This document shows, piece by piece, positions 8,979 to 44,265 of a stretch of 64,000 nucleotides of DNA. Both the position numbers and the translations under genes were made by a program. Origin of the DNA: an uncultured Acidobacteriota bacterium (GTDB lineage: Bacteria > Acidobacteriota > Vicinamibacteria > Vicinamibacterales > SCN-69-37); NCBI GenBank assembly GCA_963738485.1, contig CAVTWK010000005.1:388690-452689 (forward strand). The letters are read 5' to 3'. The notes under the pieces are model-generated. The model was given only the letters and a program-made list of their open reading frames with translations. It was not told where the DNA came from and searched no databases. Position 1 is the first letter of the stretch. Each line of letters begins with the position of its first letter.

Positions 8979-9020
8979 CCCGCCTTCGCAGGGCTGCTCG
9001 CGCCCTGCTTCGGCGGGCAA

Positions 9021-9086
9021 GCCCGCCATGCCGGCGGTTCGGCCGGCTTCGGCGCAGAGGCCCGTCATGCCGGCGGTTCGGCCGGC
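9021..9086. repeat. 39-bp-spaced direct repeat (2 copies)
   Basis: gcccgccatgccggcggttcggccggc and gcccgtcatgccggcggttcggccggc. Confidence 0.7.
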
Positions 9087-9103
9087 GAAGGCGGGCACGC
9101 CCG

Positions 9104-9820: not shown

Positions 9821-9829
9821 GGGACGATG

Positions 9830-10175
9830 ATAAACGGGCTACGGGAAACAGCCTACGGGAGACGGGCTACGGCGGACGGACGACGGGAAACAGCCTACGG
9901 CCTACGGGAGACGGGCTACGTCAGACGGCCTACGGCCTACGGCAGACGGCCTACGGCCTACGGTAGACGGCAGCCCGCGCGACAGCAGACGGGCGACGAA
10001 GCAAGGTACACGCACAGGGGGCCGGCTCGTCGAGCCGGCCCCCTGTCGTTTCCGCTGTTCCGCTGTCGATGGCCGTAGCCTGTAGGCCGTGAGCCGTCGC
10101 CCGTGGCCCGTCTGCCGTAGGCCGTAGGCCGTCTGCCGTAGGCTGTAGCCCGTAGGCGGTCTGCCGTCTCCCGTC
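9830..10175. repeat. inverted pair of heptanucleotide arrays (ACGG-type then CCGT-type) around a GC hairpin
   Basis: 9833-9985 reads ctacggg aaacagc ctacggg agacggg ctacggc... 10066-10175 reads ccgtagc ctgtagg ccgtgag ccgtcgc ccgtggc ccgtctg... The central hairpin is CAGGGGGCCGGCTCG/CGAGCCGGCCCCCTG at 10015-10045. Confidence 0.9.
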
Positions 10176-13100
10176 CTACCGTCCCAGCCAGATGTCTTCG
10201 AGCACGTTGAACGTCTGTGTGCCCACTTCGCGGCCGGCGATCGCCAGTGAGACGCGATAGACGCCCACGCCGATCCCGCCTCCGCCGCCCCCACCGAAGC
10301 CGCCGCCTCCGCCGCCACGGCCGCCACCTCCGGCGCCCGCCGTGCACGACGTCGGCGTCGCCGGTGCGGCCGGTGTCGCCGCCGGCGCGGGCGCCGCAGC
10401 CTGGCCACGACCTCCGCCGGCGCCGCCGCCTGCGCGACCCCCGCCCCCGCCGCCCGCAGGGTCGCCGGCCAACGCCCACTGGAACCGGTTGAGACCGGCG
10501 TTGCCCGTGCCGACGCACGTGCGGACGGCCTGTCCGGTCGCTGTGTTCGTGATCGTCACCCGCACTTCACCAGGCGCCGCCGCCTTCAGGTAGTAGGCGA
10601 TCGCCGTGCCGCGCGGCGCGACTTCGCCTGACCACCACTTGTCACCCGGGATCTCGGTGACGTTGAGCCGGTCGGCCTTCCACAGCACGGCCTCGCGCGG
10701 CGCGAACAGGACGTTGTCCTTGGCTACGTTCTCCGCGGTCATCTGCTGCAGCGGGGAGATGTCGTCCAGAATCCACACGCCGCGCGAGTGCGTGCCGAGA
10801 ATCAGGTCGTTGTCGCGCGGATGCACGACCACCTCGTCGATGCGGCCCTGCGGCAGGTTCGGCATGAACGATTCCCACGTCTTGCCGTCGTCGAGCGAGA
10901 CGTAGAAACCGTACTCCGTCGGCGCGTAGAGCAGGTTGCGGTTCTTCGGGTCCTGCCTGATCGAGTTGACGTTGCCCTGCGGCAGGTTGCCGGAAACCGA
11001 CGTCCACGTCGTGCCGTAGTCGGTGGTCTTGAAGATGTACGGCTTGAAGTCGTTGTTCCGCTTGCCGTCGAGGGCGATGTACGCGGTGCCCGCGTCGTAC
11101 CAGGACGCCTCGAGGCCCGAGACGTAGGTCTCGTGGTTGACGCCGGGGATGTTCTTGCCGACCTCGGTGAACGTCAGCCCGTTGTCCTTGCTCACCTGGA
11201 TGTTGCCGTCGTCAGTGCCGGCCCAGACGATGCCCGGCAGGACGGGGGACTCGGCCACCTCGGTGATCGACCCGTACTCGTTGGCGACGTAGCCGTCGTG
11301 GCGCGAGAGGATGCAGGGCTTGCCCCGATTCTGCCCGCCGCCGCCACGTCCGCCGCCCCCGCAGGCAGGCAGCCCGTACGACTGTTCGAGAATCGTGCGC
11401 TGCGTGATGTCGATGCCCTTGCCGATGTTCTGCGACATCATCCAGGACTGTCCACGATCACGCGAGATGAACAGCTGACGCCCACCCACGATGACGGTGC
11501 TGGGATTGTGGGGCGACAGCCGAATCGGCGTGTTCCAGTTGAACTGCATGATGGCGTCGGCCGGCGGCGTGTTGATCACGTTGCCGCGCCCGCCGCCACC
11601 CTGTCCGCCGCCCCCACCGCCACCGCGCCCGGCGAGACTGGGCCGGATCGACTGCGTGACGCCGGTCGAGACGTCGTACCGGTTGATGTTGCCGTTCTGC
11701 GACTCGGTGTAGAACACGTTCGGGTTGGTCGGATCGACCTGCGTCTGGAATCCGTCGCCGCCGCCCACGCTGATCCAGTTCCACTGGTGGATGCCGCCCG
11801 TTCGCGTCGAACTCGGTCCGCACCACGACCCGTTGTCCTGCAGACCGGTGCAGACCCAGTAGGGCCGCCGCATGTCGTGCGAGACGTGGTAGGACAGCGC
11901 CACGCCCCACATGCGGATCGACTCCCACCGGAGGCCGCCGTCATAGGAGACGTCGATGCCGCCGTCGTTGCCGTACATCACGTGATTGCTGTTCTGCTGA
12001 CTGATCCAGATCGCGTGGTTGTCCACGTGGCCCTGCCCGACCAGTGTCGTGAACGTCTTGCCGCCGTCCACCGACTTGCGCGGGTTGACGCCACCGACGT
12101 AGACGACGTCGGCGTTGGTGGGATCGACCCGGATCTGGCTGTAGTACATCGGGCGCTGGTTCTCGTTGGACATGAACGTCCAGGTCTTGCCCTTGTCAAT
12201 CGACCGCCAGACGCCGCTCGACTGCGGATCGGGCGCCGCGGCGGCCGCGCCGCCAGCGCGGCCGCCCCCCGCCTGCCCGCCCGCCAAAGCACCACCCCCC
12301 GCTGCCGCTGGTGCGGCGGCGGGGGCATCGGGATCCGCCTGCACGGCCGCTGATTCCTTGTCGGGCGCCACTTCAATCTGCGCGTAGATCACGTTGGGGT
12401 TCGACCGCGAGATGTCCAGGCCGATGCGCCCCATGGTGCCGCGCGGCAGACCGGTGCCCGTGACCTTCTTCCAGGTCTTGCCGCCGTCGGTGCTCTGGTG
12501 GATCCCGCTGCCGGGACCTCCGCCGACGTAGCCCCACGCCGTGCGGCGATGCTCGTACATCGCGGCCCACAGGTTGTTCGGGTTCGACGGGTCAATGACC
12601 AGGTCGGTCGCGCCCGTGTCGGGCGTGACGAACAGCGTCTTGGTCCACGTCGTGCCGCCGTTGGTGGACATGAACACGCCGCGCTCGTCGTTCGGACCAT
12701 ACAGGTGGCCGTTGGCCGCGACCCAGACGATGTTCGGGTCCTTCGGGTGGACGACAATCCGCGAGATCGACTGCGTGTCCTTGAGGCCGATGTTGACGAA
12801 CGTGATGTCCTCGGCGTTGGCCGTCGAGGCGTTCGTGCTCTTCCAGACGCCGTTGCCGAAGGAACTCGACTGCCGGTTGTTGGGCTCACCCGTGCCGACG
12901 TAGAGGATGTTGGGGTCGGTCGGCGCGAGCGCCAGATCGCCGATCGAACTGGTGCCGTGGCTGTCGAAGATCGGGTCGTAGGTCGTGCCGTTGTTGACGG
13001 TCCGCCAGATGCCACTCACCGCGAACCCGACGAAGTAGGTGAATGGCGCCTTCTCGTTGACCGCGAAGTCGTCGATACGCCCGCCCTGTCCGGTGGGACC

Positions 13101-13347: not shown

Positions 13348-13374
13348 GGTGGGCTGATATTACATCAGCCCACC
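13348..13374. other. perfect 11-bp stem / 5-nt loop hairpin
   Basis: GGTGGGCTGAT attac ATCAGCCCACC, between the BNR-gene start and the heptamer arrays. Confidence 0.6.
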
Positions 13375-13583
13375 GGCTACGGCAGACAGACGACGGTCTA
13401 CGGGAGACGGTCTACGGCACGGGGCCGACAGCAGACAGGCGACGGCAGAACACGGGAGATGGCTGGCGACTGGCGGCCGCAGGCTGTTGCCGCTGTAGGC
13501 CGTGGGCTGTTGTCGCCCGTTTGCCGTCGCCCGTCCGCCGTAGCCTGTTGGCTGTTTGCTGTTGCCCGTTTGCCGTCTGCCGA
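13375..13583. repeat. inverted pair of heptanucleotide arrays
   Basis: 13375-13470 is ACGG-type (ctacggc agacaga cgacggt ctacggg agacggt ctacggc). 13490-13583 is CCGT-type (ccgctgt aggccgt gggctgt tgtcgcc cgtttgc cgtcgcc...). The pair abuts the M23 stop codon. Confidence 0.85.
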
Positions 13584-14956
13584 TTACTGTCCGCGCAGCT
13601 TCCGGATGATGCGGTCTTCGATCCAGTGCGAATCCCACCACTCGATGGGGTTGACCATCCGGCCGTTGACCAACATCGTGAAGTGGAGGTGGTCGCCGCC
13701 GGCCATGCCCGTCATGCCACTCCTCCCCAGTGTCTGGCCTTTCTCGACCATGTCTCCGACCTTCACCCCGATGCTCGAGAAGTGGGCGTAGAGCGATTGC
13801 ACGCCCATCCCGTGGTCCACGATCACGCAATTGCCGTAGATGCCGAGCTCTTCGGCCATGAGGACCTTACCTCGATTGGCCGCGACGACAGGCGTGTTGG
13901 CATAGGACGCGAGATCGAAGCCCAGATGGACCTGCTTGTCTACCTCCTTCCCCTGATAGAGGTAGGTGCGCTGGTCGGCGAACGCGGACTCGGCCGACGA
14001 GTTGGTGAACGGATGGAAGACGGCGCCCTGCCAGAGCATCTCGGGGGCCGTCTGCGTCGCGAAGGACGCGATCTTCGCCGCGTTCTTCTTCCGCAGGTCG
14101 CTGTTGATCGCGACGAACTGCTCGATGAGCGTGCCGGTGGGCTTGATCTCGGTGGTTCCCGCCAGAATCGCTGGCACCACGCGTTCGATCAGCTTGTCGG
14201 TGATCTCGATCCGGCTCTGCTTGAACGGCTTCGGGAAGGTGCGGTAGTCGAAGCTCGCGCGCGCGGTGTTGCCGGCCTCGTCCCGCGCGAACAGGTGCAT
14301 CGACGCCGTCGACGGGCTGGTCGTGCAGCAGCGCGAAGAAGGCCACGCGCAGCGTGGCATCGGACACGTCGATCCCGGGGACCGTGGCTCCGGCGACGGG
14401 GAATCCCGGGTACTCGACGTCACCGACGACCACCCCTGATTGCACATCCGCCGGCGAGACCCGGTAGACGACCATCTCGGCCCCGCCAAGGTTGACGTAG
14501 TGATGGGTGGAGTGCACCGACACCCGCGGGGGATCGAGCCGGACGACCACGTCGCGCGTCGTCGTTGACTCGATCTGGCGAAGCCCGTAAAGGACCGGTC
14601 GCGACGCGGTGACGATGAGGCGGCCGGGGCCGTTGGCCAGACCGGGGACCTGCTCGCGTCCCACGGGACGCGTCAGGGTGATGCGGTTGGGATGGGCCGG
14701 ATCGGTCAGTCCGGCCGTCGTCGCGCCTGCCAGGGAGAAGACCGGCGTGCGCGCTGCCGTTCTGCTCGAACGCAATGGTCAGTGCGGACACCGCGGCCCC
14801 AGGCGCCTCGACCCAGACTTCCACAGGGGTCGTGGTGCCGACGAAGCGTTCGGGTCTGGCCAGGGTGATCGCCGGAGGCGCCAGGAACCCGGCGCCGATG
14901 TACGTACCGAGGGCGGCGAGCAGGAGGACGACGAGCAGCACGACGAGCTTGCGCAT
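13584..14956 (-). pseudogene. M23-family metallopeptidase, frameshifted as assembled
   Basis: N-terminal anchor MRKLVVLLVVLLLAALGTYIGAG. C-terminal LytM motifs VIVDHGMGVQSLYAHFS and GMAGGDHLHFTMLVNG. Coding signal moves through three frames, with joins near 14760 and 14301. Confidence 0.8.
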
Positions 14957-15003: not shown

Positions 15004-16323
15004 ATGGTCTCGACGCCGGGTACGTCCAGGTTGTCTCCGAATACCAGCACCGTTCTGTCGATCATCATGGGCGGCGGGGCCGGCACGCGCCTGTTTCCGC
15101 TCACCAAGGAACGCGCCAAGCCCGCGGTGCCGCTCGCCGGCAAGTACCGGCTCGTGGACATCCCGATCTCCAACTGCATCAACTCGGATCTGCGGCGCAT
15201 CTACCTGCTGACCCAGTTCAACTCGGCGTCCCTGCACCGGCACATGGCGCAGTCCTACAAGTTCGACCATTTCACGAGCGGGTTCGTCGAAATTCTCGCG
15301 GCCGAACAGACGCACGGCGACACATCCTGGTACCAGGGCACGGCCGACGCCGTCCGCAAGAACCTCGTCCATTTCCTCGACCACGACTTCGAGTACGTGC
15401 TCATCCTGAGCGGCGACCAGCTCTACCGCATGGACTTCCGCGAGGTCATCGGCCAGCACGTCGCGAGCGGCGCCGAACTGACGGTCGCGACCATCCCGGT
15501 GATGCGCCGCGAGGCGTCGCAGCTCGGCATCATGCAGATCAATCGCGATCGGCGCATCACGCGCTTCGTCGAGAAACCCAAGGACGAAGCCTTGCAGGCC
15601 AGCCTCGCCCTGCCCGAGGACATGTACGCGCCGCTCGGACTGGCGCGCGACAGCGAGGACCGCCTGCTCGCCTCCATGGGCATCTACGTCTTCAACCGGG
15701 ACGTGCTGCTCAAGCTCCTCGACAACGATTTCACCGATTTCGGCAAGCACATCATCCCCGGGGCCATCGACACGCATCGCGTGTTCTCGTACGTCTTCCA
15801 CGGCTACTGGGAGGACATCGGGACCATCCGGGCCTTCTTCGAAGCCAACCTCGATGTGGCTTCGGACCTGCCGCGCTTCAACTTCTTCGACATGTCAGCG
15901 CCGATCTTCACCAGGCCGCGCTTGCTGCCGGCGTCGAAGATCAACGGCGCCCAGATCGACCACGGCGTGATCTCGGACGGCTGCATCCTGAGCCAGACCG
16001 TCATCCAGCAGTCGGTCGTCGGCATCCGCAGCGTGCTCTCGCCCGGGAGCAAGCTCTACCGGACCATCATGCTCGGCAGCGATTTCTACGAGTCAGAGTG
16101 GTCGATCGCCGAACACGAGGCCGTCGGCGCGCCACGGATCGGCATCGGCAGCAACACGCGGATCGAGAACGCCATCATCGACAAGAACGCCCGCATCGGC
16201 AACGACGTCGTCATCACGCCGAACGGCAAACCCGAGAACATGGACGCCGCGTCCTTCTACATCCGCGACGGCATCGTCATCATCCCGAAGAACGGCGTGG
16301 TCCCTCACGGGACGGTGATCTGA
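15004..16323 (+). CDS. glgC: glucose-1-phosphate adenylyltransferase
   Basis: IIMGGGAGTRLFPLTKERAKPAVPLAGKYRLVDIPISNCINS, followed by a left-handed beta-helix C-terminus. ATG at 15004. Confidence 0.9.
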   Translation: MVSTPGTSRLSPNTSTVLSIIMGGGAGTRLFPLTKERAKPAVPLAGKYRLVDIPISNCINSDLRRIYLLTQFNSASLHRHMAQSYKFDHFTSGFVEILAAEQTHGDTSWYQGTADAVRKNLVHFLDHDFEYVLILSGDQLYRMDFREVIGQHVASGAELTVATIPVMRREASQLGIMQINRDRRITRFVEKPKDEALQASLALPEDMYAPLGLARDSEDRLLASMGIYVFNRDVLLKLLDNDFTDFGKHIIPGAIDTHRVFSYVFHGYWEDIGTIRAFFEANLDVASDLPRFNFFDMSAPIFTRPRLLPASKINGAQIDHGVISDGCILSQTVIQQSVVGIRSVLSPGSKLYRTIMLGSDFYESEWSIAEHEAVGAPRIGIGSNTRIENAIIDKNARIGNDVVITPNGKPENMDAASFYIRDGIVIIPKNGVVPHGTVI

Positions 16324-16420
16324 CGACGGGCTACGGCAGACGGGCTACGGTAGACGGGAGACAGCCCACGGCCTACGGCCGACAGGCCCACGGCCCCCCG
16401 GCCACGATAACGGGGCGACG
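16324..16420. repeat. heptanucleotide array, ACGG-type, about 12 units
   Basis: gacgggc tacggca gacgggc tacggta gacggga gacagcc cacggcc tacggcc gacaggc ccacggc. It fills the gap between the convergent glgC and kinase stop codons. Confidence 0.8.
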
Positions 16421-16422
16421 GC

Positions 16423-17412
16423 TTAGCCCGGTGTGACGGATGGCAACGATAGCCGCGCCTGCGCGCCACCCAGCGGGCTCAGGCCGATCGTGATGGATCC
16501 GCCGTAGAGTTCGGCGAGGTCGCGGACGATGGCGAGGCCCAGGCCGGAGCCGGGATGGACCTGGTCGGCGCGGACGCCGCGTCCCAGGACCGCTTCGCGC
16601 AGCGCCGGTTCGATGCCGGGGCCATCGTCGTCCACCTCGATCAGGACCATCGCGCCAGCAGCAGCAGAGGACACCGTGACCTGGCTCCGCGCCCACTTGC
16701 AGCCGTTGTCCAGCAGGTTGCCCAGCATCTCCTCGAGGTCGGCGCGCTCGACCCGTACGACGAGTCCGCGATCGACGCTGACCTCGACCCGCAGTTGGCG
16801 CTCGGCATAGAGGCGACGCAGGGTCCGTGCGAGCCCCTCGGCGGCCGAGAGAACGTCGGCGCGCGCGTTGAGCGTGGCCCCGGAGGCGCCGGCGCGCGCC
16901 TGGGCCAGCTGGTAGGTGATCTGGCGCTCCATGCGCGACACCTGCTGCTGGATCGTCTCGGCCAGTGCGTGCTGGCCAGCCTCCGAGGCGCGACCAGCCT
17001 CCTGGGCCAGCACGGCCAGCGGGGTCTTCAACCCATGCGCCAGGTCGCCGGCGCGCGCCTGGGCTCGCGCCACGGCCGAGGCCTGATGTTCGAGCAGCGC
17101 GTTCAGGTCGTCGATGACAGGCTGCACTTCGAGCGGATAGGTGCCGTCCACGCGCGGCGCCTCTCCGGCCCGGACCGCCCGTAAACGACGGCGCAGTTCA
17201 TCGAAGGGCGAAAGGCTCCGACGCAACTGCGTGAACCCGACGACCATGAGAATGGCCGCCGTGAACCCGATGATCGTCCAGTGCACCTCCCAGGCCGCGT
17301 GTGGCGCGTGGTTGATGACGACCATGGCGATTAGAACGGCCAGCGACAGCAGGCCGATGGTCCAGAGCGCAGACCCGACGACGAGTCTCGAGCCCAGCGA
17401 TCGTTGGGCCAT
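16423..17412 (-). CDS. two-component sensor histidine kinase
   Basis: Two N-terminal TM helices, H-box DLAHGLKTPLAVL, and ATPase boxes LLDNGCKWA, DDGPGI and GSGLGLAIV. The start overlaps the regulator stop (TGATG). Confidence 0.9.
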   Translation of the reverse strand: MAQRSLGSRLVVGSALWTIGLLSLAVLIAMVVINHAPHAAWEVHWTIIGFTAAILMVVGFTQLRRSLSPFDELRRRLRAVRAGEAPRVDGTYPLEVQPVIDDLNALLEHQASAVARAQARAGDLAHGLKTPLAVLAQEAGRASEAGQHALAETIQQQVSRMERQITYQLAQARAGASGATLNARADVLSAAEGLARTLRRLYAERQLRVEVSVDRGLVVRVERADLEEMLGNLLDNGCKWARSQVTVSSAAAGAMVLIEVDDDGPGIEPALREAVLGRGVRADQVHPGSGLGLAIVRDLAELYGGSITIGLSPLGGAQARLSLPSVTPG

Positions 17413-22119: not shown

Positions 22120-22290
22120 ATCCTCGCGTCGAGCTTCGCCCCACGTCGGCTCCGCGGTGAGCCCAGCCCTACTTCCTCCGAGGCCTCCGTGGTGAGCCCC
22201 GTGTCTGGCTCTGCGTGCTCCGTGAGCTCCGCGGTGAGCCCGTGTTCTGCTCCGCTCGCTCCGTAATCCCCGCGGTGAACCCGAAGGGCT
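22120..22290. repeat. CTCCG(C/T)GGTGA(G/A)CCC repeats x4
   Basis: gctccgcggtgagccc, cctccgtggtgagcccc, gctccgcggtgagcccg and ccccgcggtgaaccc at about 35-40 bp spacing, between the convergent rnd and permease stops. Confidence 0.7.
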
Positions 22291-23738: not shown

Positions 23739-24433
23739 GCGTGCGCCTCCGTGCCCGTCTCACTGATGATGCGTCCGTCCAGCATCGTGATCGTCCGGCG
23801 CGCGTAGGTGGCGGCGAGGTTCGCGTCGTGCGTGACCATGATGACGGTCTTGCCCTCGCGTTCGTTGAGTGTGGTCAGCAGCGCCATGATCTCGCGCGAC
23901 GTGCGGCTGTCGAGGTTGCCTGTCGGCTCGTCGGCGAGCAGCAGCTGCGGGTTGTTGGCGAGGGCGCGCGCGATGGCGACGCGCTGCTGCTCACCGCCGG
24001 AGAGCTCCTTCGGCCGATGCTTCTGCCGTCCGCCCAGGCCGACCGACGTCAGCAGGTCTTCGGCGCGCTTCGCGCGCTCGGCCTTCGGCATCTCGGCGAA
24101 GACCATCGACAAGGCCACGTTGTCGGTCGCGCTCATCGTCGAGATCAGGTTGAAGGACTGGAAGATGATGCCGACGGCGTGCCGGCGATACAGGCTCAGC
24201 GCCGCGCTGGGCAGCGTCGCGAGATCCTGCCCGGCGACTTCGAGCGAGCCCGACGTTGCCCGGTCGAGACCCGCGAGCAGATTGAGGAGCGTGGACTTGC
24301 CGGATCCGGATGTGCCGACCAGGGCGATGAACTCGCCCGGCTCGATCGTGAACGACACGCCGTCGAGGGCACGGACGGTCGTCTCGCCCATGCGGTAGTG
24401 CCGAGTCAGGTCGCGCGCGGCCAGATGCGGCAC
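23735..24433 (-). CDS. ABC transporter ATP-binding protein (MacB/LolD type)
   Basis: Walker [10 protein letters not shown], signature [15 protein letters not shown], Walker [14 protein letters not shown] 4-nt overlap with the permease start indicates an operon. Confidence 0.95.
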
Positions 24434-24435
24434 CG

Positions 24436-24526
24436 ACAGAGCATACAGCCTACGGGAGACGGTCTACTGCCTGCGGTAGACCGTCTACAGCCTACCGTAG
24501 CCGGTAGCCCGTTGACCGTCTCCCGT
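24436..24526. repeat. short heptamer-family segment with internal hairpin
   Basis: cagcctacgggagacggtctac tgcctgcg gtagaccgtctacagcctaccgtagccggtagcccgttgaccgtctcccgtc. The stem is GAGACGGTCTAC/GTAGACCGTCT. Confidence 0.7.
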
Positions 24527-24919
24527 CTAACGCACTCGTCTGTCCGACTCGACGAGGATCACCGCGCCGGTGATCGGCAGCTTGATCAGCGCGCCGAGCG
24601 GGCCGAGGTTCAATGCGTCGCGCACCGTGCCGACGACGCGCACGTCGGCGCCACGGCGCGGCACGCCGCGTTCGGAGACGACCCAGATCTGCGCCGGATC
24701 GATCGCCACCCGGTAGGCGCCGCGATTGCCGACCGAGTAGCTGTCCACGACGCGGCCGCTGATCTGAACGTCGCTGTTCCGGTAGCGATACGGATCGTCG
24801 AGGACATGCGAGATGCGCCGGCTGGCGCAAGCCGTCGCGCCCAGCGCCACGAGGAACGCCAACGTGGTGAGACCGACCGCACGCCTGAAGGGCGAGGAGG
24901 CAATCGAAGGGGCTGACAT
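24527..24919 (-). CDS. small lipoprotein, hypothetical
   Basis: ATG 24919 gives MSAPSIASSPFRRAVGLTTLAFLVALGATAC, which is lipobox-like. The rest is beta-rich sequence, possibly OB-fold-like. Confidence 0.6.
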   Translation of the reverse strand: MSAPSIASSPFRRAVGLTTLAFLVALGATACASRRISHVLDDPYRYRNSDVQISGRVVDSYSVGNRGAYRVAIDPAQIWVVSERGVPRRGADVRVVGTVRDALNLGPLGALIKLPITGAVILVESDRRVR

Positions 24920-25027: not shown

Positions 25028-25465
25028 CGGGGACGTCGTGGACTTCTGCGACGCTCCGGGACTGCGGCGTGATTGCCGGGGTCTCCAGCGTCCGTGCAGC
25101 CCGTCGGCACCTCAAGTCTCTTTCACTCCCGCACTTCGGCGTCAATGCCAGCACTTGAGCGACAGTTCCCGCACCTCTGCGCGAACTCCAGCACTTCAGG
25201 CGCGGTCCCGGCCTCCAGCGTCAGTTTCGGGACCTGAGCGTCAGCCTGCACCTCAGCGTCAGGTCCAGCACTTCTGCGTCAGGACCAGCACTTCAGCGCC
25301 GGCCCCGGACTAGGGCGTCAGCCTGCACTTCACCGTCAGGACCAGCACATCAGCCGCGGTCCCGGACTTCAGCGTCAGCCCTGCACTTCACGTGCTTGTC
25401 AGGCCAGCACTTCGCGCGGAGCGCGAAGCACTTCGAGCCCTTTTCACCCAGCACTTCCCGCGTCA
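25028..25465. repeat. array of about 21 units at about 20-bp spacing, core (C)CNG(C/G)AC(T/C)TC(A)GCGTCAG
   Basis: ACTTC-type cores fall at about 25042, 25061, 25109, 25133, 25153, 25173, 25193, 25211, 25232, 25250, 25270, 25290, 25309, 25327, 25347, 25366, 25385, 25409, 25430 and 25454. Confidence 0.8.
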
Positions 25466-25469
25466 GCGC

Positions 25470-28258
25470 CTATTGTGCCGGCCGATAGATCCGCACGTTC
25501 TGAATCTGCAACGGTCCGAGTCCTGCCGCCGCCGCCGTCAGCGTGATGCGCACGAACTTCGCGTTCGTCGGTGAGAACGAAGCCGTCGTGATCGTCGAGA
25601 CCGTGCCTTTCGAGCAGCGGCTGACTCCAGGTCTTGCCGTCCGTGGAGGTCTGCACCTGGAACTCGCGCAGGACCGACGGGCGCGGCGGGTGCCGCCGGT
25701 GGTGCCCCCGCGGCTGGTGCCCCCGCCGCCGGTGGCGCGCCACCACCACGCGCACCGCCCCCGCGACCGCCGCCCGGGGCGTTGAACTGCACCTCCGAGA
25801 TGCGCATCGCCTGCGGCAGTTCGACCTGCACCCACATGCCCGGCACCTGCGGCTCAGCCGACGTCCACCCGATGATCGTCAGCGCCCGGTCGGCCGCCGC
25901 CGTGTTGTGGCTGGCGGACGCCTTCCACGTCTGCTCGATCGGCAACAGCACCGGCAGTGCCGTCGCGATTTCCGGCGCCGTCCACGGCGTCTTGCGATTC
26001 ACGCTCGCGGCCCGCACACGCGCGACGTCCTCCGGGGTGACGAAGGACCCGGTGTTGCCGAAGTCGTTGCGCACGTAGGAGGCGATCGCCGCGACCCAGT
26101 CGTCCTTCTGCGCGCCCATCGGCACCATGACGTTGGTGAACGTCTTGTCGTCGAGCGGCCCGGTCAGGCCGTGCAGCAGCACCTTGATCACATAGTCGCG
26201 ATGGCCCTGCACGCGTGGCGAACCGGCGAGCGACGGACCCATCATCGTGCCCGGCGCCGCGCCGGCCATGGGCGCGCCTCGGCCATCATCGCCATGGCAC
26301 GAGAAGCAGACCTCGCGGTAAATCGTGCCGCCGCGCTGCAACTGGTCCTGCTCGGCAGGGTTGATGCCTGCCGCGCCGCGTCCGCGCGCGCCGGCCGCGA
26401 GCATCAGCTTGCCGATCTCCTGGATCCCGCGCGACTTGTTGGCCTCCATCGTCGCCTGGATGACGGCGGGCGCATCCGCGACCTTCAGCACGTTGATCGT
26501 GAGGATGCCCTGCAGCGCGACGTCCACGTCGCTGTCCTTCGTCGCCGCGCGATAATCGGCGTCGAACGAGCGGTCGCCCTGCTTGTACAGCGTCTCGCTG
26601 GCGCGGATCGCCTGGATGCGCATGCGTGGATTCGGGTCCTTCATGGACGCGCGGACCAGCGCGGCGTCGAGTGCGCCCAGGCCTTCGAGCGTCCACATCG
26701 CGTGGAACCTGGCGAGCAGATTGGTCGATGACGTCGCCATCGTCCGCAGCGCCGGGACGACGGACCTGTCCTGTCGCAAGACGAGCGTGCGCTGCGCGGT
26801 GTCTCGCCACCAGCCGTTGGCGTGGGTGAGGTGCTGCACGAGCTGCGTAGGCGTCTCGCTGTACATCCTCGGCTTCGTCATGTCGAGCGCGATGGCGGGG
26901 AGCGCGGGCTGTCCGGGAATCGGCCGGCTCGCCGCGGGGCCAACCGGGATGCCGGGGAACTCGGGCGTGCCGTCGAAGCGCAGTCGCCAGATGCGGCCGT
27001 GGTGAATGACTTTGTCGAGCTGGTACTGGAAGATCTTGTGGCGCAGATACGAGTTGGCGCGCGTCCACTCGCCTTCCTGGATGATGCCGCGATACATGTC
27101 CGCGATGTAGACGGTGCCATCGGGCGCCGTCTTGATGTTCACCGGCCGGAACAGCGGATCGGAGCTGAGGATGAACTCGGACTTCGGATACACGTTCTTG
27201 AGCTGGGTCAGCCCGTCGGTCTTCACGATGTCCGTGCGCCGGATCAGCCGACCGACCGGCTCGGTGTAGAGCAGGTCGCCGATCAGATCCTCGGGGACGC
27301 GGTGGCCACGCACCATGTCCTGACCGCCGGTCGCGGTTGCGTGATTGACCACGCCTGTCGGGACGCGCACGCGGCTCATGCCGCCCTGCATGTCGCCCAG
27401 GCCGACGATCGGCCAGACGATGTCGAACTCGGGTTCGTATTCGTCGGCGATGCGGTAGGCGCCGTACTGGATCGGCACCTGGAAGTTCAGCGGGCCGCGC
27501 TCGCAGCCCGCGCACGTGAACCACATCTTGCCGTCGTCGTCCTGCGTCAGGCCCCACTGGCCGCCGTTCGAGCCGGTGGCTTCGCGGATGATGCCGGTCG
27601 GCGTCCAGCGGAAGCGGAACGAGTTGTAGGTGCTGTAGATCCAGTTGTCGAGGCCCCAGACGAACCCGCTCTGTTCGTGCTCGAGGTTGCCGTCACGGCC
27701 GATGCCGACGCCGCTGTAGAAGATCTCGCGCTTGTCTGCCACGCCGTCGCCGTTGGTGTCCGTCAGCTTGATCACGTCGTCGGACGCGGTCTCGTTGGTC
27801 AGGATGGAGTTGGCGTCGAGCGGCAGCACCATCCGCGGCAGCACGAGCTTGTCGGCGAAGACGACCTTCTTGTCGAACGTGCCGTCGCCGTTGGTATCTT
27901 CCCAGCGGCTGATGCGGCTTTCCGGCGCGTGCTGGTTGGTGCCCTCGACGTCAGGCATGTAGGTGACGAACTCGCAGATGTACATGCGACCCAGGCCGTC
28001 GAACTCGATGACCGCGGGCGTATCGATGTCCGGGTCGGAGAGGACCAGCTCCATGCGGTAGCCCGGCGGGAGCAGGAACGTCTTCGCCTGCTCGGCAGCG
28101 GTCTTGGCCTTGATCGGATCCTTCGGGCCGAAGTCTGCGCGCGTGGACGGAATCAGCGGGTAGGGCTGCGACTGACCGAGCATCGAGATGCTCGCGACAC
28201 TGACCAGGCCAAGGGCCAGCATCCAGACACGGGGGCGCGACGAGGGGCTGAGGCGCAT
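25470..28258 (-). pseudogene. PVC-type membrane-bound-dehydrogenase-like heme-binding protein with C-terminal discoidin-like domain; 3' end frameshifted
   Basis: Signal/anchor MRLSPSSRPRVWMLALGLV. It has a dehydrogenase-like propeller region, HEAT-like repeats and the cytochrome c motif CFSCHGDDG. The last ~70 codons (SVLREFQVQTSTDGKTWSQPLLE, then GTVSTITTASFSPTNAKFVRITLTAAAAGLGPLQIQNVRIYRPAQ*) sit in two other frames, with joins near 25683 and 25609. Confidence 0.75.
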
Positions 28259-28330
28259 GACTGCACGTCTCCTAGAGGAATCCGATCGAACAGGATTCGA
28301 TATGGAACCGATTCCATCAAGTTCTAGCAC

Positions 28331-29030
28331 AACAGACGGCGGACAGCCTACGGTGGACGGCTCACGGACGACGGCTCACGGGCTACGGCGGACAGGCTAC
28401 CGCCGACGGCCTACGGGCCACGGCTCACAGGCTACGGCAGACAGACGACGGCTCACCAGCTACGGCCTACGGCAAACAGGCTACAGACGACGGACGACGG
28501 ACGACGGGGGACGGCAGACAGAACACGGCTCACCGGCTACGGACGACGGCCAACAGGCTACGGACGACCGCCTACGGCCTACGGCCCACAGATACGGACG
28601 ACGGACCACCGCAGACGGGCTACGGTGGACGATCGCGGCTCACTGGCTACTGCCTACGGCTCACGGGCTACCGCAAACAGGTTACAGACGACGGACGACG
28701 GGAGACCGCAGGCCGGCTCCGGTGGACAGCAAACGGCTCACGGGCGACGGCAGACGGACGACGGCTCACGGGCTACTGCCGACAGAACACGGCAGACAGG
28801 CTACGGACGACGACGGACGACGGGAGACAGCCTACGGCGGACGGCTCACGGGCTACTGCGGACAGCAGACGGCTCACGGGCTACTGCCTCACGGCAAACA
28901 GGCTTCGGACGACGGACGACGGACGAAGGACGACAGGCTACCGGGGACTACGGCAGACGGGCCACGGCGGACGGGCTACGGCCTACGGCACACAGGGTAC
29001 GGACGGGAGACAGACGACCTGCGGTTCACG
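28331..29030. repeat. heptanucleotide array, ACGGNNN orientation, about 100 units
   Basis: It parses in register as acggcgg acagcct acggtgg acggctc acggacg acggctc acgggct acggcgg... with only occasional 1-nt register slips. Confidence 0.9.
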
Positions 29031-29039
29031 GCATAGGTG

Positions 29040-29160
29040 TGGACCTGGACGTCAGCTCCGGGACTTGCGCGAGCGTAGCGAAGCTGCGGGACTTCAGCGT
29101 CAGTTCCGGGACTTCTGCGAAGCCTGAGAAGTGAGGCGAAGCCCCCGGGACTTCTGTCCC
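29040..29160. repeat. GGGACTTC-core repeat cluster (4 units)
   Basis: ctccgggacttgcgcgagc..., gctgcgggacttcagcgtcag, ttccgggacttctgcgaagcc, cccccgggacttctg. It lies directly beside the big heptamer array. Confidence 0.75.
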
Positions 29161-30954
29161 TACACATCCAGCCCGATCGATCGCATGAGCGCCACGGCGT
29201 TGCTCGTCTGCACGACGCCGGGACGAAGGCGGTAATCGAATGTCATCACTCCGTCGCTGAACTGGTCTTCGAGGTGCATGTTCGTCGCCTTCTCGCCGAG
29301 TTGATCTGCGATGGCGCCGAGCGCCAGATCGTGGGTGGTGACGATGCCGACCGCGGCCTTCGCAATGAGGCCGGTGAGGAGCGCGGCAGCACCCTGGCGG
29401 CGATCGTGGGAGTTGGTGCCCGAGAGGATCTCGTCGAGCAGGAACAGCGCGTGCCCATCGTGCGCGTCCACCAGATCGACGATGGCCTTGAGGCGTGTGA
29501 TCTCTGCGTAGAACCGCGACTTGCCATCCGTGAGCGAGTCGTTCACGCGGATGGACGCGCCGATGGCCAGCCGCGTGAGCGTGAACGAGGAGGCCCGCAC
29601 CGGCGCACCCATCTGGGCCAGCACGACATTCAGCCCGAGGGCGCGCATCAGCGTGCTCTTGCCAGACATGTTGGATCCACTCACGACGAGCAGCTGCGGA
29701 TCGGCGCCGCGACCGCCGAGGCTGACGTCATTGGCGACCGCCGACCGCGGCAGCAGGGGATGGGCCATGCCCAGCGCCGCCACGTGGGCGGGGCCGTCAA
29801 CGATCGTCGGATAGACGTGATCCGGATGCTCAGCCGCGAAGGCCCCGAGCGCGAGGAGGGCGTCGAACTCGCCGATGACGTCGAGCCAGCGGGGCACGTC
29901 GGTTGAGAGCCGCGTGCGCCAGGCGTCGATGGCCAGCGCCATCTGCGTGCCCCAGAAGACGATGGCCGCCGGGATGGCCACGATGATGTTGCTGCGCGAG
30001 GCGAGGAGCGCGCCCAACTGGTCGAGTCGTCCGATCTCAGCGGACGCGGGACGATGCGTACGCGCCAGCGCTTCCCGCAGCGCCTGCAGCCGCGGGCTCG
30101 TGAAGTGCTCGTGTTCGACGACGCGCAGCAGCGAGGCGAAGAGATCGAGGTCATGGGCTGCTTCGTCCACCGTGCCGATGATGACGGACACGCGCGGGCG
30201 CAGGAACAGCACCCAGGCGATCTGGATCACGAGCAGCACCGCGACCGATCGCGCGAACCAGACCGGCAGGTCGCCGTAGTACCAGGCCGCGAACGACCGT
30301 GGGGAGCACCACGGCCGACGCGAGCGCCATCGCGACGCGCGGCCACGGACGCGCCAGGATCGGCGGGGCCGCGGCCCAGGTGCGGAGCCGCGCCGCGTCG
30401 ATGCCGGCGCGCGGCAGGCCGTCGCCGGCCACCGCCATCGCTTCGCGCAAGTCGTGTCGCGCGGTGAGCTCGCGAACGGCCGCCTGCCGCTCCAGCAACT
30501 GGGCCGGGTCGGCCGGCGCAAGCAGCCAGCGTGTCAGCGTCTCCTGGCCCGCCTGCGTGCGCGTCGTCGCCAGCAGCTCAAACAGGCTGCCGCGGCCGAA
30601 GAGGTCGAGGTCCTCGGAGTAGAGATGCGCCTCGGGCCGGAAGCGCTCCCCGGGGTCCCCGTGGCCGATCCAGTCGTCGCCGATCCGGCGCAGGCCGCGC
30701 TCGTAATAGGTCGCGGCTGAACGCGCGCGGTCGCGCGCGGCGAGGACCCTGGCATGGTAGACCGCGATGACGATGAACGCCACGGCTGCGGCGAGGGCGA
30801 CCGGCAGGCCGCTCCAGCCTGAGATGAAGAGCGCGGCGCCCGCAAGGCCGACCAGCCCCAGGCGCAGGTACGCGACCTGGCCATGACGCCGATCCCGCTG
30901 GGCCGCCACCTGCCGAAGCTCGGCGAGCCGGGTTTGATATTGGCGCTCAATCAA
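29160..30954 (-). pseudogene. membrane-associated MutS-related protein (MutS domain V ATPase), frameshifted as assembled
   Basis: The C-terminus has Walker A SGSNMSGKSTLMRALG, Walker B LFLLDEILSGTN and TTHDL. The N-terminal half has TM helices (VAYLRLGLVGLAGAALFISGWSGLPVALAAAVAFIVIAVY). The join is near 30293. The start is either TTG 30954 or the upstream ATG 31068 inside a repeat element. Confidence 0.75.
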
Positions 30955-30955
30955 C

Positions 30956-30995
30956 GGGGTCGTACCTCGAGTATGGAAAACTCCATCGCCCTTCA
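30956..30995. repeat. half copy (single arm) of the GGGGTCGTACCTCGAG... palindromic element
   Basis: ggggtcgtacctcgagtatggaaaactcc matches the arm of the full elements at 31021 and 31125. It abuts the TTG 30954 start of the MutS-related gene. Confidence 0.7.
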
Positions 30996-31020
30996 CTCTG
31001 ACGCATTCGGCGAGTGTCCA

Positions 31021-31103
31021 GGGGGCGCACCTCGTCTGTGGAAAACTCCGGGGACCTCGATCACCCATGTCCCCGGAGTTTCCCACAGACGAGGTGCGAC
31101 CCC
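31021..31103. repeat. REP/MITE-like palindromic element, 35-nt arms, 13-nt loop
   Basis: GGGGGCGCACCTCGTCTGTGGAAAACTCCGGGGAC ctcgatcacccat GTCCCCGGAGTTTCCCACAGACGAGGTGCGACCCC, with two arm mismatches. Confidence 0.85.
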
Positions 31104-31124
31104 TTAGTCTGTGACAGTGTCTAG

Positions 31125-31207
31125 GGGGTCGTACCTCGAGTGTGGGAAACTCCGGGGACATGGCAGAACGAGGTCCCCGGAGTTTTCCACACTCGAGGTA
31201 CGACCCC
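31125..31207. repeat. REP/MITE-like palindromic element, 35-nt arms, 13-nt loop (opposite loop orientation)
   Basis: GGGGTCGTACCTCGAGTGTGGGAAACTCCGGGGAC atggcagaacgag GTCCCCGGAGTTTTCCACACTCGAGGTACGACCCC, with one G:T mismatch. Confidence 0.85.
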
Positions 31208-31927
31208 GTCGCCGCGATCTTCGATCTCGATGGCACCCTGACCGACAACATGCCCTGGCACGCACGCGCCTTCGAGGTCTTCATGCGCCGGCACGGGCTG
31301 CCTCCGCTGACGATGGAGCTACGGCGCCGGCTCGACGGCAAGCGCAACGACGAGATCATGCCGGTATTGTTCGGGCGCGATCTCACGGCCGACGAGCAGC
31401 GCGATCTCGCGCACGAAAAGGAGACGCTCTACCGCGAGACCGCCGCGGGCCAACTCGAGCCGATGCCCGGGTTGCTGGCGTTGCTCGACGCGCTCGAGGC
31501 CCGCGAGATCCCCGTCGCGGTCGCGACATCCGGCCCCCGTGAGAACGTCAGCTACTCCCTGCGCGAGATCGGTCTGGCCGATCGCATCACCGTCATCGTT
31601 CGTGGCGACGAGGTGCCGCACGGCAAGCCGGCACCGGACATCTATCTGCGCGCGGCTGAACTGCTCGGCGTCGATCCGGCGCGCTGCCTGGGCTTCGAGG
31701 ACGCCCCAGTCGGCGTCGAAGCCATCGTCCGCGCCGGTATGCGCTGCGTGGCCCTCACGACGTCCTTCGACGCGGCCGTCTTCTCTCAGGCGGCGGTGCC
31801 GCCGCACGTGATCTATCGCGACTTCGACGGTTATCTGGCGGCCGAAGGTGCGTGGCTACGGGCGCTCGCGGGCACGGCGCCCCTCACCAGCAGCGCGCGT
31901 CGCGCTTCCGAGAAGACGCTAGACTGA
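31160..31927 (+). CDS. HAD-superfamily hydrolase (beta-phosphoglucomutase-like)
   Basis: Motif I FDLDGTLTDN, motif II VATSG, and motifs III/IV GKPAPDIY...GFEDAPVGVEA. The only canonical in-frame start is ATG 31160, in the loop of a palindromic element. Confidence 0.85.
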   Translation: MAERGPRSFPHSRYDPVAAIFDLDGTLTDNMPWHARAFEVFMRRHGLPPLTMELRRRLDGKRNDEIMPVLFGRDLTADEQRDLAHEKETLYRETAAGQLEPMPGLLALLDALEAREIPVAVATSGPRENVSYSLREIGLADRITVIVRGDEVPHGKPAPDIYLRAAELLGVDPARCLGFEDAPVGVEAIVRAGMRCVALTTSFDAAVFSQAAVPPHVIYRDFDGYLAAEGAWLRALAGTAPLTSSARRASEKTLD

Positions 31928-35301: not shown

Positions 35302-35347
35302 GGGGTCAGACCGGGGTCAGACCATGGTCTGACCCCGGTCTGACCCC
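35302..35347. repeat. perfect 46-bp palindrome (2x GGGGTCAGACC, AT centre, 2x GGTCTGACCCC)
   Basis: ggggtcagaccggggtcagaccatggtctgaccccggtctgacccc, in the divergent hicB / ECF sigma intergenic region. Confidence 0.85.
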
Positions 35348-39168: not shown

Positions 39169-39265
39169 GTCGTGAGGACCTCGGCGAGGAGTCGGACACC
39201 GCATGTGCCCGCTCATAGGGATTCGCGCGGTCCTACGGGTTCGAAGCCACCGGGGTTACAGGGGG

Positions 39266-39503
39266 CTCCCGTCTCCCGTCGCCATAAGGTCGCCCGTTGG
39301 CGGTTGCTCGTGTAGCCCGTCGCCCGTGGGCTGTGGTCTGACCCTGGTCGTCCGTCGCCCGTTTGCGGTACCCGGCAGCCCGTCGTCCGTCGTCCGTCGT
39401 CGGTCGTGCGTGGGCCGCAGGCCGTCTCCCGTGGGCCGTCTTCCGTAGCCCGTCTGCCGTCTCCCGTCTCCCGTCCGTAACCACCCTCCGTCACCGCCCG
39501 TAG
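39266..39503. repeat. heptanucleotide array, CCGT-type, about 34 units
   Basis: ctcccgt ctcccgt ... gcccgtc gtccgtc gtccgtc gtcggtc gtgcgtg ggccgca ggccgtc tcccgtg ggccgtc ttccgta gcccgtc tgccgtc tcccgtc tcccgtc. Confidence 0.85.
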
Positions 39504-39509
39504 TAGGGT

Positions 39510-43810: not shown

Positions 43811-44265
43811 CGCCCGGGACCTGGCCGAAAGCACCGGGACTTCGCGCGGAGCCGGGCGGGGCGAGGCGAAGCCTCCGGGACTTGAGCGAGCGAAGCGAGC
43901 AGCCGGAACCTGGGCGAAGCACCGGGACTTCGCGCGAAGCGAAGCGAAGCCTCCGGGACTTCAACGAGCGCAGCGAGCGCCCGGAACCTGGGCGAGAGGC
44001 ACCGGGACTTCCTGCGGAGCCGGGCGAGGTGAGGCGAAGCCTCCGGGACTTCAACGAGCGCAGCGAGCGCCCGGAACCTGGGCGAGAGGCACCGGGACTT
44101 CCGTGCGGAGCCGGGCGAGGTGAGGCGGAGCCTCCGGGACTTCAACGAGCGCAGCGAGCACCCGGGACCTGGGCGAGAGGCGCCGGGACTTCCGTGCGGA
44201 GCGGGTTGGCGAGGCGAAGCCTCCCCGACTTCCGCGGTGCGGGACCGGCTTTCCGGCCTCGGGTT
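43810..44265. repeat. tandem repeat, about 90-bp unit x about 5
   Basis: The unit is GCCCGGAACCTGGGCGAGAG GCACCGGGACTTCCTGCGGAGCCGGGCGAGGTGAGGCGAA GCCTCCGGGACTTCAACGAGCGCAGCGAGC. CCGGRACCTGG anchors fall at about 43813, 43903, 43980, 44070 and 44161. Confidence 0.85.

Follow-up and report, generated by a model that had tools for sequence, protein, structure and literature searches.

A long, degenerate heptanucleotide array with a conserved AC-G core in an intergenic spacer of an uncultured Acidobacteriota bacterium

Contig CAVTWK010000005.1 of an uncultured Acidobacteriota bacterium of the order Vicinamibacterales (assembly GCA_963738485.1) carries a long tandem array of degenerate heptanucleotides between a gene for a DUF7133/cytochrome c protein and a gene for a MutS-like protein. 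We analysed 64 kb of this contig (positions 388,690 to 452,689), hereafter the window, and all coordinates are given in window numbering. The array, also called the focal array or locus E, had been described in an earlier note on this DNA as about 100 tandem degenerate heptamers filling a 700-bp intergenic gap. The array is indeed of that size (706 nt), but the gap is larger, at 901 nt (28259-29159). The locus is composed as follows.

25538..28258, - strand: gene for a DUF7133/cytochrome c protein with a haem-binding region of the Planctomycetes-Verrucomicrobia-Chlamydiae (PVC) type, downstream neighbour (Pfam DUF7133, 3e-80, and Cytochrom_C)
28259-29159: intergenic gap around the focal array, 901 nt, both neighbours on the - strand
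28291..28328, - strand: conserved promoter-proximal block GCTAGAA-N9-GAATCGGTTCCATATCGAA-CCTG, from alignment with the contigs L207 and, in part, L086
28329..29034, + strand: focal heptanucleotide array, 706 nt (lag-7 autocorrelation, unit parse, block duplications, 25-mer uniqueness)
29035..29159, - strand: spacer between the array and the stop of the MutS-like gene, 125 nt, four copies of a dispersed repeat, GAAGTCCCGG
29163..30521 (stop at 29160-29162), - strand: C-terminal part of a protein with MutS domain V, upstream neighbour (Pfam MutS_V, 3.5e-22)

Read along the sense strand of the two genes, the spacer runs from the MutS-like stop through 125 nt with four copies of GAAGTCCCGG, the 706-nt array (NNNCCGT in this orientation), 7 nt, the conserved block and about 30 nt to an ATG. 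This start codon of the DUF7133 gene, whose product is identical to the 906-aa database protein P0001, lies 70 nt from the array, and these left 70 nt of the gap comprise the promoter-proximal block and the 5' leader of the gene.

The focal array has the consensus AC(G/A)G-NNN on the + strand, with its first canonical unit at 28336, and NNN-C(C/T)GT on the - strand, on which both flanking genes are encoded. Its periodicity is pronounced. Compared with 500 first-order Markov shuffles (0.295), base identity reaches 0.573 at lag 7, 0.570 at lag 14 and 0.539 at lag 21 (z = 14, 13.5 and 12.6) and is still 0.53 and 0.52 at lags 28 and 35 (z down to 11), and lags 2, 5, 9 and 12 are depleted. Tandem Repeats Finder (TRF) reported overlapping rows with periods of 7, 14, 21, 28, 35 and 49. 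Parsing by dynamic programming over 28325-29040 gave 102 units arranged head to tail, 94 of which are exactly 7 nt long; the eight irregular units measure 4, 4, 4, 6, 6, 6, 8 and 10 nt, and the register is perfect, with no slip, over units 1-37. A search of the window for six consecutive ACGGNNN units returned 11 occurrences at four loci, and one for four consecutive units returned 30 occurrences at six loci, compared with none in the shuffled window in either case. The two checks proposed in the earlier note, autocorrelation against shuffled controls and a scan for the repeated core (here over the window), therefore both recovered a period-7 repeat far above background, and the register, said to hold with occasional slips, does so.

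The seven positions of the unit are very unequal. Among the 94 units of 7 nt, position 1 is A in 89, position 2 is C in 93 and position 4 is G in 91. Position 3 is G in 63, A in 19, C in 8 and T in 4, and positions 5-7 are almost free, with 0.26-0.31 bit each. The triplets seen most often at these positions are GCT (18), ACG (16), CTC (11), CAG (9), CCT (9) and CGG (5), the same six that had been listed when the array was first described as an ACGG core followed by a small set of triplets. The commonest complete units are ACGGACG (11), ACGGCTC (10), ACGGGCT (7), ACAGGCT (7) and ACGGCAG (5), and the array as a whole is a mosaic of about 30 unit types with only AC-G in common. Thymine had been noted as rare and restricted to the variable positions; it accounts for 56 of 700 bases, and of the 52 T in 7-nt units, 47 are at positions 5-7.

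The focal array is the largest of at least six arrays of the same family in the window. A lag-7 scan of the whole window identified six loci (A to F) with nine arms in all, each built on AC(G/A)G-NNN, which together cover about 1.9 kb, or 3% of the window.

9834..10175 (scan 9811-10208), no single strand: locus A, ACGG arm 9834-9980, hairpin 10014-10046, CCGT arm 10062-10175
13372..13583 (scan 13353-13622), no single strand: locus B, ACGG arm 13372-13448 and CCGT arm 13480-13583, inverted pair (z = -4.45)
16326..16402 (scan 16290-16425), + strand: locus C, lone ACGG-type array (unit parse)
24444..24526 (scan 24424-24544), no single strand: locus D, short inverted ACGG/CCGT pair (z = -4.79)
scan 28319-29035, + strand: locus E, the focal array, lone and without structure
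39262..39482 (scan 39249-39508), - strand: locus F, lone array, CCGT on the + strand

The 108 seven-nt units of the five non-focal loci have the same profile as those of the focal array: A in 91%, C in 98%, G/A/C in 72/15/10% and G in 96%, followed by three free positions. Locus A lies between two genes and reaches from the stop codon of one (10176) to the start of the other (9820). It contains a 114-nt inverted repeat that is 75% complementary, and its RNA fold has an energy of -233.6 kcal/mol (z = -12). Locus B is set between two - strand genes, locus C starts 3 nt past the stop of a glgC-like gene in a gap between convergent genes, and locus F lies in the gap between a divergently oriented thioredoxin-like gene and a gene for an extracytoplasmic function (ECF) sigma factor. 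Locus D fills a gap of 93 nt; the stop codon TAG (24527-24529) sits at the edge of the array, where it is part of the first 7-nt slot of the parse (GCTGTAG). At loci A, B and D, the CCGT arm adjoins the stop codon of the upstream gene. We also observed that the stops at 10176-10178, 24527-24529, 16321-16323 and 13584-13586 lie inside or 0-3 nt from a heptamer array. The stop TAG at 10176-10178, for example, forms an ACGGTAG unit together with the ACGG before it. The arrays thus seem to have grown as far as the 3' ends of coding sequences, or even a little way into them. The idea, put forward in the earlier note, that ACGG-type repeats could pair with CCGT-type arrays found elsewhere applies in cis at 9834-10175, 13372-13583 and 24444-24526; the gap of the focal array holds no partner for it, and this array folds no better than its shuffles.

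The centre of locus A (10014-10046) is a perfect 16-bp GC-rich hairpin, ACAGGGGGCCGGCTCG a CGAGCCGGCCCCCTGT, with no U-tract behind it. It is possible that this hairpin is a non-canonical terminator around which both arms grew. We discarded an origin of the paired arrays from a miniature inverted-repeat transposable element (MITE) or another transposon: inspected by eye, the centres of loci A and B have no conserved non-array core, termini or target duplications, and no transposase was found in the window. No mobile-element, reverse transcriptase, ribbon-helix-helix (RHH) or cold-shock gene was found among the 30 window proteins scanned, nor was an IS200-like Y1 transposase of the type associated with repetitive extragenic palindromic (REP) elements (RAYT).

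The order of units in the focal array retains traces of its growth. Blocks of six units have a best match to another block with a mean identity of 0.795, compared with 0.749 ± 0.006 after shuffling of the unit order (z = 7.8), and 21 blocks reach an identity of at least 0.85 where 1.2 are expected. Because the unit order is non-random, with recurrent block offsets of 49, 77, 201, 313, 390 and 422 nt, the array must have grown partly through duplication of multi-unit blocks. The block copies are 80-91% alike, with a maximum of 0.91; there has thus been no recent duplication, and the array is old.

If copying is blind to position and followed by mutation, all seven positions of the unit are expected to decay equally. 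We simulated such a neutral history in 1600 runs, in which blocks were duplicated and deleted and mutation was uniform, at one of four rates; one of these rates matches the observed identity between neighbouring units. None of the 1600 simulations produced three positions at 94% or more together with three at 55% or less, and the observed standard deviation of the major-allele frequency (0.230) is above the simulated maximum (0.222). In segments of 77 nt, this spread exceeds the 95% limit of the null in 9 of 12 array segments from the window and in 8 of 40 segments from other genomes, the latter including arrays of CAGT+NNN (L018) and arrays with a GTCTT core (L043). Since neutral simulations never give a fixed core, AC-G at 7-nt spacing must be constrained: it is more conserved than neutral decay explains. 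Two explanations can be offered for this constraint, either copying that depends on the core or a factor that reads the core every seven positions.

The age of the array can also be approached by comparison with relatives. L207, the syntenic contig of the closest homologue (P0002), encodes a DUF7133 protein that is 85% identical and an orthologue of the MutS-like protein that is 74% identical over the C-terminal 380 residues and 65% identical in the other (N-terminal) half. The gap from stop to ATG is only 106 nt in L207, versus 901 nt here; the GCTAGAA...GAATCGGTTCCATATCGAA block is present and the array is absent. By this alignment, the ~830 bp that include the 706-nt array are therefore a lineage-specific gain, located exactly between the end of the upstream gene and the conserved promoter-proximal block. 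The presence of the array thus differs between relatives at the orthologous locus, a comparison that the earlier note had called for. The array family itself is found elsewhere on L207, where an ACGG-type array (ACGGGCG ACGGGGG GCCGGCG ACGGGCG ATCGGCT ...) directly follows the DUF7133 stop; the contig ends about 70 nt past this stop, within about 10 nt of the array end. Homologues at 79-83% identity have other genes next to them and are preceded by gaps of 94-156 nt, and the 10-21 kb examined around them contained no ACGG-type array. The core of the promoter-proximal block, GGAATCGGTTCCA, is common to DUF7133 orthologues (L207, 1898-1935; L086, ~9880-9895) whose upstream DNA is otherwise unrelated, and the GCTAGAA-N9-GAATCGGTTCCATATCGAA block is a candidate promoter or operator.

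We rejected the possibility that the array is coding. Its GC content by codon position is flat (0.71/0.65/0.69), as is that of the two open reading frames (ORFs) that cross it (0.68/0.64/0.67 for 28188-29036 and 0.67/0.68/0.65 for 28625-29134), compared with 0.65/0.50/0.88 and 0.69/0.54/0.87 in the flanking genes. Period-3 power is 0.2 in the array versus 14.2 in a gene segment of equal length, and a search of the translated array against 5.8 billion protein clusters gave no match at E<=1e-3. There are no stop codons over the array in any of the three + frames, and 13 in each - frame; the + frames are open because the motif leaves T almost always before AC, CA or GG. Both ORFs are thus artefacts, as had been argued from the period of seven alone.

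The two neighbouring genes invite some caution about single bases. The 3' end of the DUF7133 gene is frame-broken: tblastn of P0002 places it in three frames, with the true end near 25473. Its last ~100 codons (25473-25781, - strand) cross frames -1, -2 and -3, and an F5/8 type C domain, present at the C-terminus of its homologues, is missing from the called protein. The MutS-like gene is likewise split, its N-terminal part lying in another frame at 30154-31386. These breaks in both genes flanking the array, seen by tblastn and by comparison with the L207 orthologue, reflect either indel sequencing errors or pseudogenes, and indel errors in the assembly are probable. Some of the eight irregular units and 1-nt slips may therefore be sequencing errors. 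One could go further and regard the whole array as a collapsed, expanded or chimeric repeat, an idea to which the frame breaks lend something, as does the position of the same pattern in several short-read metagenome contigs, at the contig end or a few bases from it. However, every 25-mer of the focal array is unique, its longest exact internal repeat is 23 nt and its longest perfect run is three units, which makes collapse or expansion during assembly unlikely. The same unit vocabulary recurs at five other loci of the window, and arrays of 500-700 nt are present on independent contigs (L104, L175). An assembly artefact is thus highly improbable. The short perfect run and short exact repeats also imply that slippage should be rare at present.

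Neither strand of the focal array shows structure above shuffles, whether the 901-nt spacer is folded as - strand RNA (z = +1.08) or the + strand of the array as DNA (z = -0.79). An Rfam scan of the whole window at gathering thresholds found no family, and scans for sigma-70 promoters and intrinsic terminators detected nothing over 28100-29300. It had also been suggested that GG every 7 nt could support two-tetrad G-quadruplexes (G4); formed on the G-rich strand, these might regulate transcription or replication. Most units indeed contain GG, 41 overlapping patterns of four G2+ runs with N1-7 loops can be counted, and G4 formation in vitro has been shown for G-rich heptamers from Xanthomonas and Nostoc (PMC4692102). 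On the other hand, the mean G4Hunter score of the focal array is 0.30, and its best 25-nt window (1.12) stays below the usual threshold of 1.2. The G runs are mostly short (70 of length 2, 57 of length 1 and 14 of length 3), and there is no four-run G3+ motif in the array, so that two-tetrad patterns alone are possible. C and G are also nearly equal on the same strand (229 and 247), which favours the duplex. The suggestion thus found no backing, and we consider a role for G-quadruplexes very unlikely.

Other repeats occur near the focal array. The GAAGTCCCGG pattern matches 23 times in the window, compared with 7.5 expected, with clusters at 29035-29159, 43834-44192 and 25056-25370, and a TRF row at 29077-29123 lies inside the GAAGTCCCGG spacer. 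It forms the basis of a second dispersed intergenic repeat (29058-29154, 43834-44232 and 25056-25390), which includes a 91-nt unit repeated 3.2 times at 93% identity at 43944-44232 and, downstream of the DUF7133 gene at 25056-25390, a related array with a period of 20 nt. Two 83-nt palindromic elements stand in tandem at 31021-31103 and 31125-31207, with a half copy at 30951-30984; their 35-nt arms are 94-97% complementary around a 13-nt loop, and the two copies are 80% alike. These elements, which look REP- or MITE-like, overlap the 5' part of ORF 30154-31386, the N-terminal region of the MutS-like protein, and give rise to repeated peptide strings in several ORF translations. Further TRF repeats are located at 9007-9113 (39 nt, 2.7 copies), 22185-22283 (41 nt, 2.4 copies) and 35304-35347 (11 nt, 4 copies, GGTCAGACCCC).

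To place the arrays in a wider context, we used two comparison sets chosen for a homologue of a neighbouring gene, 360 kb of Acidobacteriota loci and 1.19 Mb of mostly Bacteroidota loci. Lag-7 arrays number 7 in the window, 18 in the Acidobacteriota set and 41 in the mostly Bacteroidota set, versus 1-14 arrays for each of lags 4, 5, 8, 10 and 11 across the three sets (2-14 in the two comparison sets). Period 7 thus stands out among lags that are not multiples of 3. Array density in the window is 29 bp/kb, compared with 7 in relatives, a difference of about fourfold. The heptamer motifs of the comparison sets are unrelated (GGCTTGA, AGCCCCG, CTACCGA, CAACTCC, TTCAGTG, GAAGTTC and others) and often form inverted pairs. 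Examples of heptamer arrays elsewhere are found at L018 8037-8113, L039 2212-2288, L043 12705-12781, L086 15444-15544 and 17194-17298, and L011 11173-11283. A fixed core of 4-5 nt followed by a free spacer is also seen in some of these, as CAGT+NNN in Aquiflexum (L018, L039) and as a GTCTT core in a Cyclobacteriaceae contig (L043), and the inverted-pair geometry recurs as CAACTCC/GGAGTTG in a Vicinamibacterales-like contig. The GTCTT core presumably resembles the preferred heptamer reported for Bacillus CspB.

A metagenome scan for six ACGGNNN units retrieved at least 120 contigs with GC contents of 0.40-0.78. Among the matches listed, to which the figures in this paragraph refer, most arrays have 1-3 unit types, some are 500-700 nt long, several are at or near contig ends, and L149 alone shares four unit types with the focal array. 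The arrays lie a median of ~26 nt from the upstream stop. Of 42 arrays with callable flanks, 16 are in convergent gaps, 24 in co-directional gaps and 2 in divergent gaps; ACGG-type arrays therefore prefer the 3' flanks of genes and avoid promoter-only gaps. REP elements and other tolerated intergenic passengers likewise prefer gene 3' flanks. In the window, the arms appeared to follow a rule of polarity, with ACGG after a stop, CCGT before a start and the ACGG arm first in a pair. This rule failed in the metagenome contigs and was abandoned: the inverted pairs outside the window are ACGG-first in 8 cases and CCGT-first in 5, and the sense strand of co-directional arrays reads ACGG in 11 and CCGT in 13, without bias.

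The focal array belongs to a known kind of element, the intergenic heptanucleotide tandem repeats, of which it is an unusually long, old and degenerate representative in a new phylum. The short tandemly repeated repetitive (STRR) sequences of cyanobacteria, with units such as CCCCAGT, TTGGTCA and CAACAGT, had been proposed as a parallel, and they are an apt analogy. They too are dispersed intergenic tandem heptamers with several unit types per genome, and their function is not known. Their motifs are nevertheless unrelated to ours, the GC content is much higher here, and the host phylum differs, as the closest homologues of the genes studied here are from metagenome-assembled genomes (MAGs) of Vicinamibacterales/Acidobacteriota. 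A likeness to REP elements and bacterial interspersed mosaic elements (BIMEs) is limited to the sibling loci A, B and D, which are dispersed, imperfect and very stable palindromes just past stop codons. REP units are palindromes of 20-40 nt with a conserved GTAG end, mobilised by RAYT transposases in enterobacteria and pseudomonads. In contrast, the stems here are made of 7-nt repeats, no RAYT is encoded among the 30 window proteins, and the focal array is not a palindrome (z of +1.08 as RNA and -0.79 as DNA).

Heptanucleotides have been described as the most abundant class of long simple-sequence repeats (SSRs) in most prokaryotic genomes, and a contact of ~7 nt with the polymerase has been proposed to favour their slippage (Mrazek et al., 2007, as summarized in PMC4679880 and PMC4692102). 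As far as these summaries describe long SSRs, the arrays in the window share with them a head-to-tail arrangement of 7-nt units, a non-coding intergenic location, the occurrence of one family at many loci, the over-representation of period 7 and a presence and length that vary between relatives. They differ in that the SSRs so described are near-perfect copies, whereas the focal array comprises ~30 types with at most three identical units in a row; moreover, the longest arrays in these two papers have 26 and 43 copies (PMC4679880, PMC4692102), versus 102 units here. For want of near-exact copies, the focal array falls outside a strict definition of an SSR. The GGGAATC and GGGGA(T/C)T repeats of Xanthomonas and Nostoc are also intergenic, combine fixed and variable positions, are found on either strand, in some cases as inverted pairs in convergent gaps, and differ in length between close relatives, but they contain tracts of 3-4 G and form G4 in vitro (PMC4692102), while the ACGGNNN units have mostly G2 and remain below the G4Hunter threshold. 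The TAACTGA repeats of Beggiatoaceae, cyanobacteria and Bacteroidetes form intergenic arrays of up to 43 copies, with shorter repeat-free gaps in related genomes (PMC4679880). In contrast to our long, degenerate arrays, which lie mostly by stop codons and follow no orientation rule, they mostly consist of 2-6 exact copies in a fixed orientation, placed a few nt before start codons (PMC4679880). The motif had been thought to lack any description, which overstated its novelty, as intergenic heptamer arrays have been described in many bacteria (PMC4679880, PMC4692102); we nevertheless found no literature linking Acidobacteria and heptanucleotide repeats, and a survey of short tandem repeats (STRs) in Genome Biology (2025) mentions neither heptamers nor Acidobacteriota.

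The explanation that we favour, and to which we attach about as much belief as doubt, is that the focal array is an old, degenerate, non-coding heptanucleotide satellite that arose by unit and block duplication, is tolerated in the spacer, and kept its core through core-dependent copying. The array would have originated by slipped-strand mispairing or unequal exchange of 7-nt units, as proposed for the bacterial heptamer excess, and would persist because it is tolerated in the spacer DNA that follows genes. Realignment and renewed copying would be confined to units with an intact ACGG/CCGT at their end: a primer terminus that finishes in ACGG, for instance, could pair again with the next CCGT, and units with a damaged core would not be re-amplified. 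Retention of the core would then reflect molecular drive and not a benefit to the cell. The focal array would be a single overgrown arm with no sequence-specific role other than to space the promoter ~830 bp from the upstream gene, and its paired siblings probably act like REP elements or non-canonical terminators at gene ends. The location of the arrays among the matches listed (16 convergent, 24 co-directional and 2 divergent gaps, without strand bias) fits tolerated insertions. Several observations nevertheless weigh against such a satellite. In addition to the results of the neutral simulations, the same fixed AC-G profile is present independently at five other loci (A 91%, C 98%, G 96%), and something constrains AC-G; core-dependent slippage is a proposed, function-free and hypothetical account of this constraint. 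With at most three identical units in a row, slippage should be rare at present, and a drive that maintains the core may be too weak. Finally, the sharing of one vocabulary by six separate loci calls for either a means of dispersal or seeding that is specific to the motif.

In other readings, the arrays are used by the cell. A lineage-specific protein could read the ACGG/CCGT core once per 7 bp of duplex and polymerise along the array, and would thereby turn the focal array into an operator, insulator or decoy of very large size just upstream of the DUF7133 promoter, by analogy with omega on pSM19035 and with ToxT/H-NS on TTTTGAT. Heptads of the sequence TTTTGAT are found in the cholera toxin (ctxAB) promoter, where ToxT/H-NS act. 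These elements resemble ours in having contiguous 7-bp units, direct and inverted, near promoters; at parS of pSM19035, one dimer of the RHH protein omega occupies each 7-bp heptad in direct or inverted orientation (PMC9499535). In favour of such a reader, a fixed 4-nt core is combined with a free 3-nt spacer at each of six loci, which exceeds what neutrality predicts. Both orientations and inverted pairs occur, the 24 co-directional cases among the matches listed have no transcription-strand bias, as expected of a duplex reader, and the focal array ends 7 nt from the conserved promoter-proximal block. However, known systems comprise 3-10 heptads and a known binder, and the 102 heptads found here, distributed chromosome-wide in the family and with no known protein, exceed any operator or centromere of that type more than tenfold. 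Arrays over ~3% of the window are excessive for specific sites, most sibling arrays adjoin stop codons and not promoters, no candidate binding protein is encoded among the 30 window proteins scanned, and the syntenic relative L207 does without the array. On balance we think a duplex binding platform unlikely.

We give a similarly low probability to a role at the level of RNA or single strands, in which paired arms would be hairpins that end transcription or shield 3' ends, and lone arms would be bound by a protein with a 7-nt footprint, of the cold-shock-domain type, or would pair in trans with transcripts of complementary arrays. The three paired loci do fold far better than shuffles (z = -12, -4.5 and -4.8) and lie 0-3 nt from stops, and the metagenome arrays among the matches listed are enriched between convergent genes, at a median of ~26 nt from the upstream stop. 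CspB binds with one protein per single-strand heptamer (as reviewed in PMC4679880), and effects of heptamers on expression in Nostoc have been reported (bioRxiv 10.1101/2022.06.06.494920). The focal array, however, is no more structured than shuffles on either strand, and its gap contains no second arm to pair with. The absence of sense or antisense preference (11 vs 13, among the matches listed) is unexpected for a single-strand reader, and neither an intrinsic terminator or promoter (28100-29300) nor an Rfam family is predicted. Still less weight, indeed almost none, falls on a live contingency locus in which gain or loss of units would shift promoter spacing and switch the downstream gene by phase variation. 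The array is directly upstream of the promoter-proximal block, and SSRs in this position cause phase variation in other bacteria (PMC12721329). Yet it lies upstream of this block and not within it, it offers no perfect tract (three units in a row at most, and no exact repeat above 23 nt, hence little slippage), and block copies that are 80-91% alike speak against recent change. A bolder proposal, which we put forward only as a speculation with little likelihood, is that A1-C2-G4 at strict 7-nt spacing is a recognition code, each heptad of which would be read by a lineage-specific factor that coats the arrays. This factor could be a duplex binder (one dimer per heptad), a single-strand binder with a 7-nt footprint, or an enzyme that writes the units.

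What bacterial heptamer repeats do, and how they arise, has been an unsettled question since the first cyanobacterial reports. Their function was still called unknown in a recent study, in which evidence for cis effects on expression in Nostoc was weak (bioRxiv 10.1101/2022.06.06.494920). Our analysis extends the phenomenon to Acidobacteriota, with arrays of up to ~100 units that occupy ~3% of a 64-kb stretch, and the orthologous empty site dates the focal array as a lineage-specific gain. Because such arrays give rise to long spurious ORFs and can interrupt short-read assemblies, they should be masked when soil metagenomes are annotated. The non-neutral pattern of three fixed and three free positions is the only feature that a specialist might not expect; it turns the question 'why seven?' into a choice between core-dependent slippage and a period-7 reader. 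Should the core indeed be a recognition code, the arrays would be functional nucleoprotein tracts (insulators, 3'-end protectors or decoys) and not junk, and the tetranucleotide core with trinucleotide spacer in unrelated arrays (CAGT+NNN in L018 and L039; GTCTT in L043) would point to a general period-7 DNA reader in bacteria.

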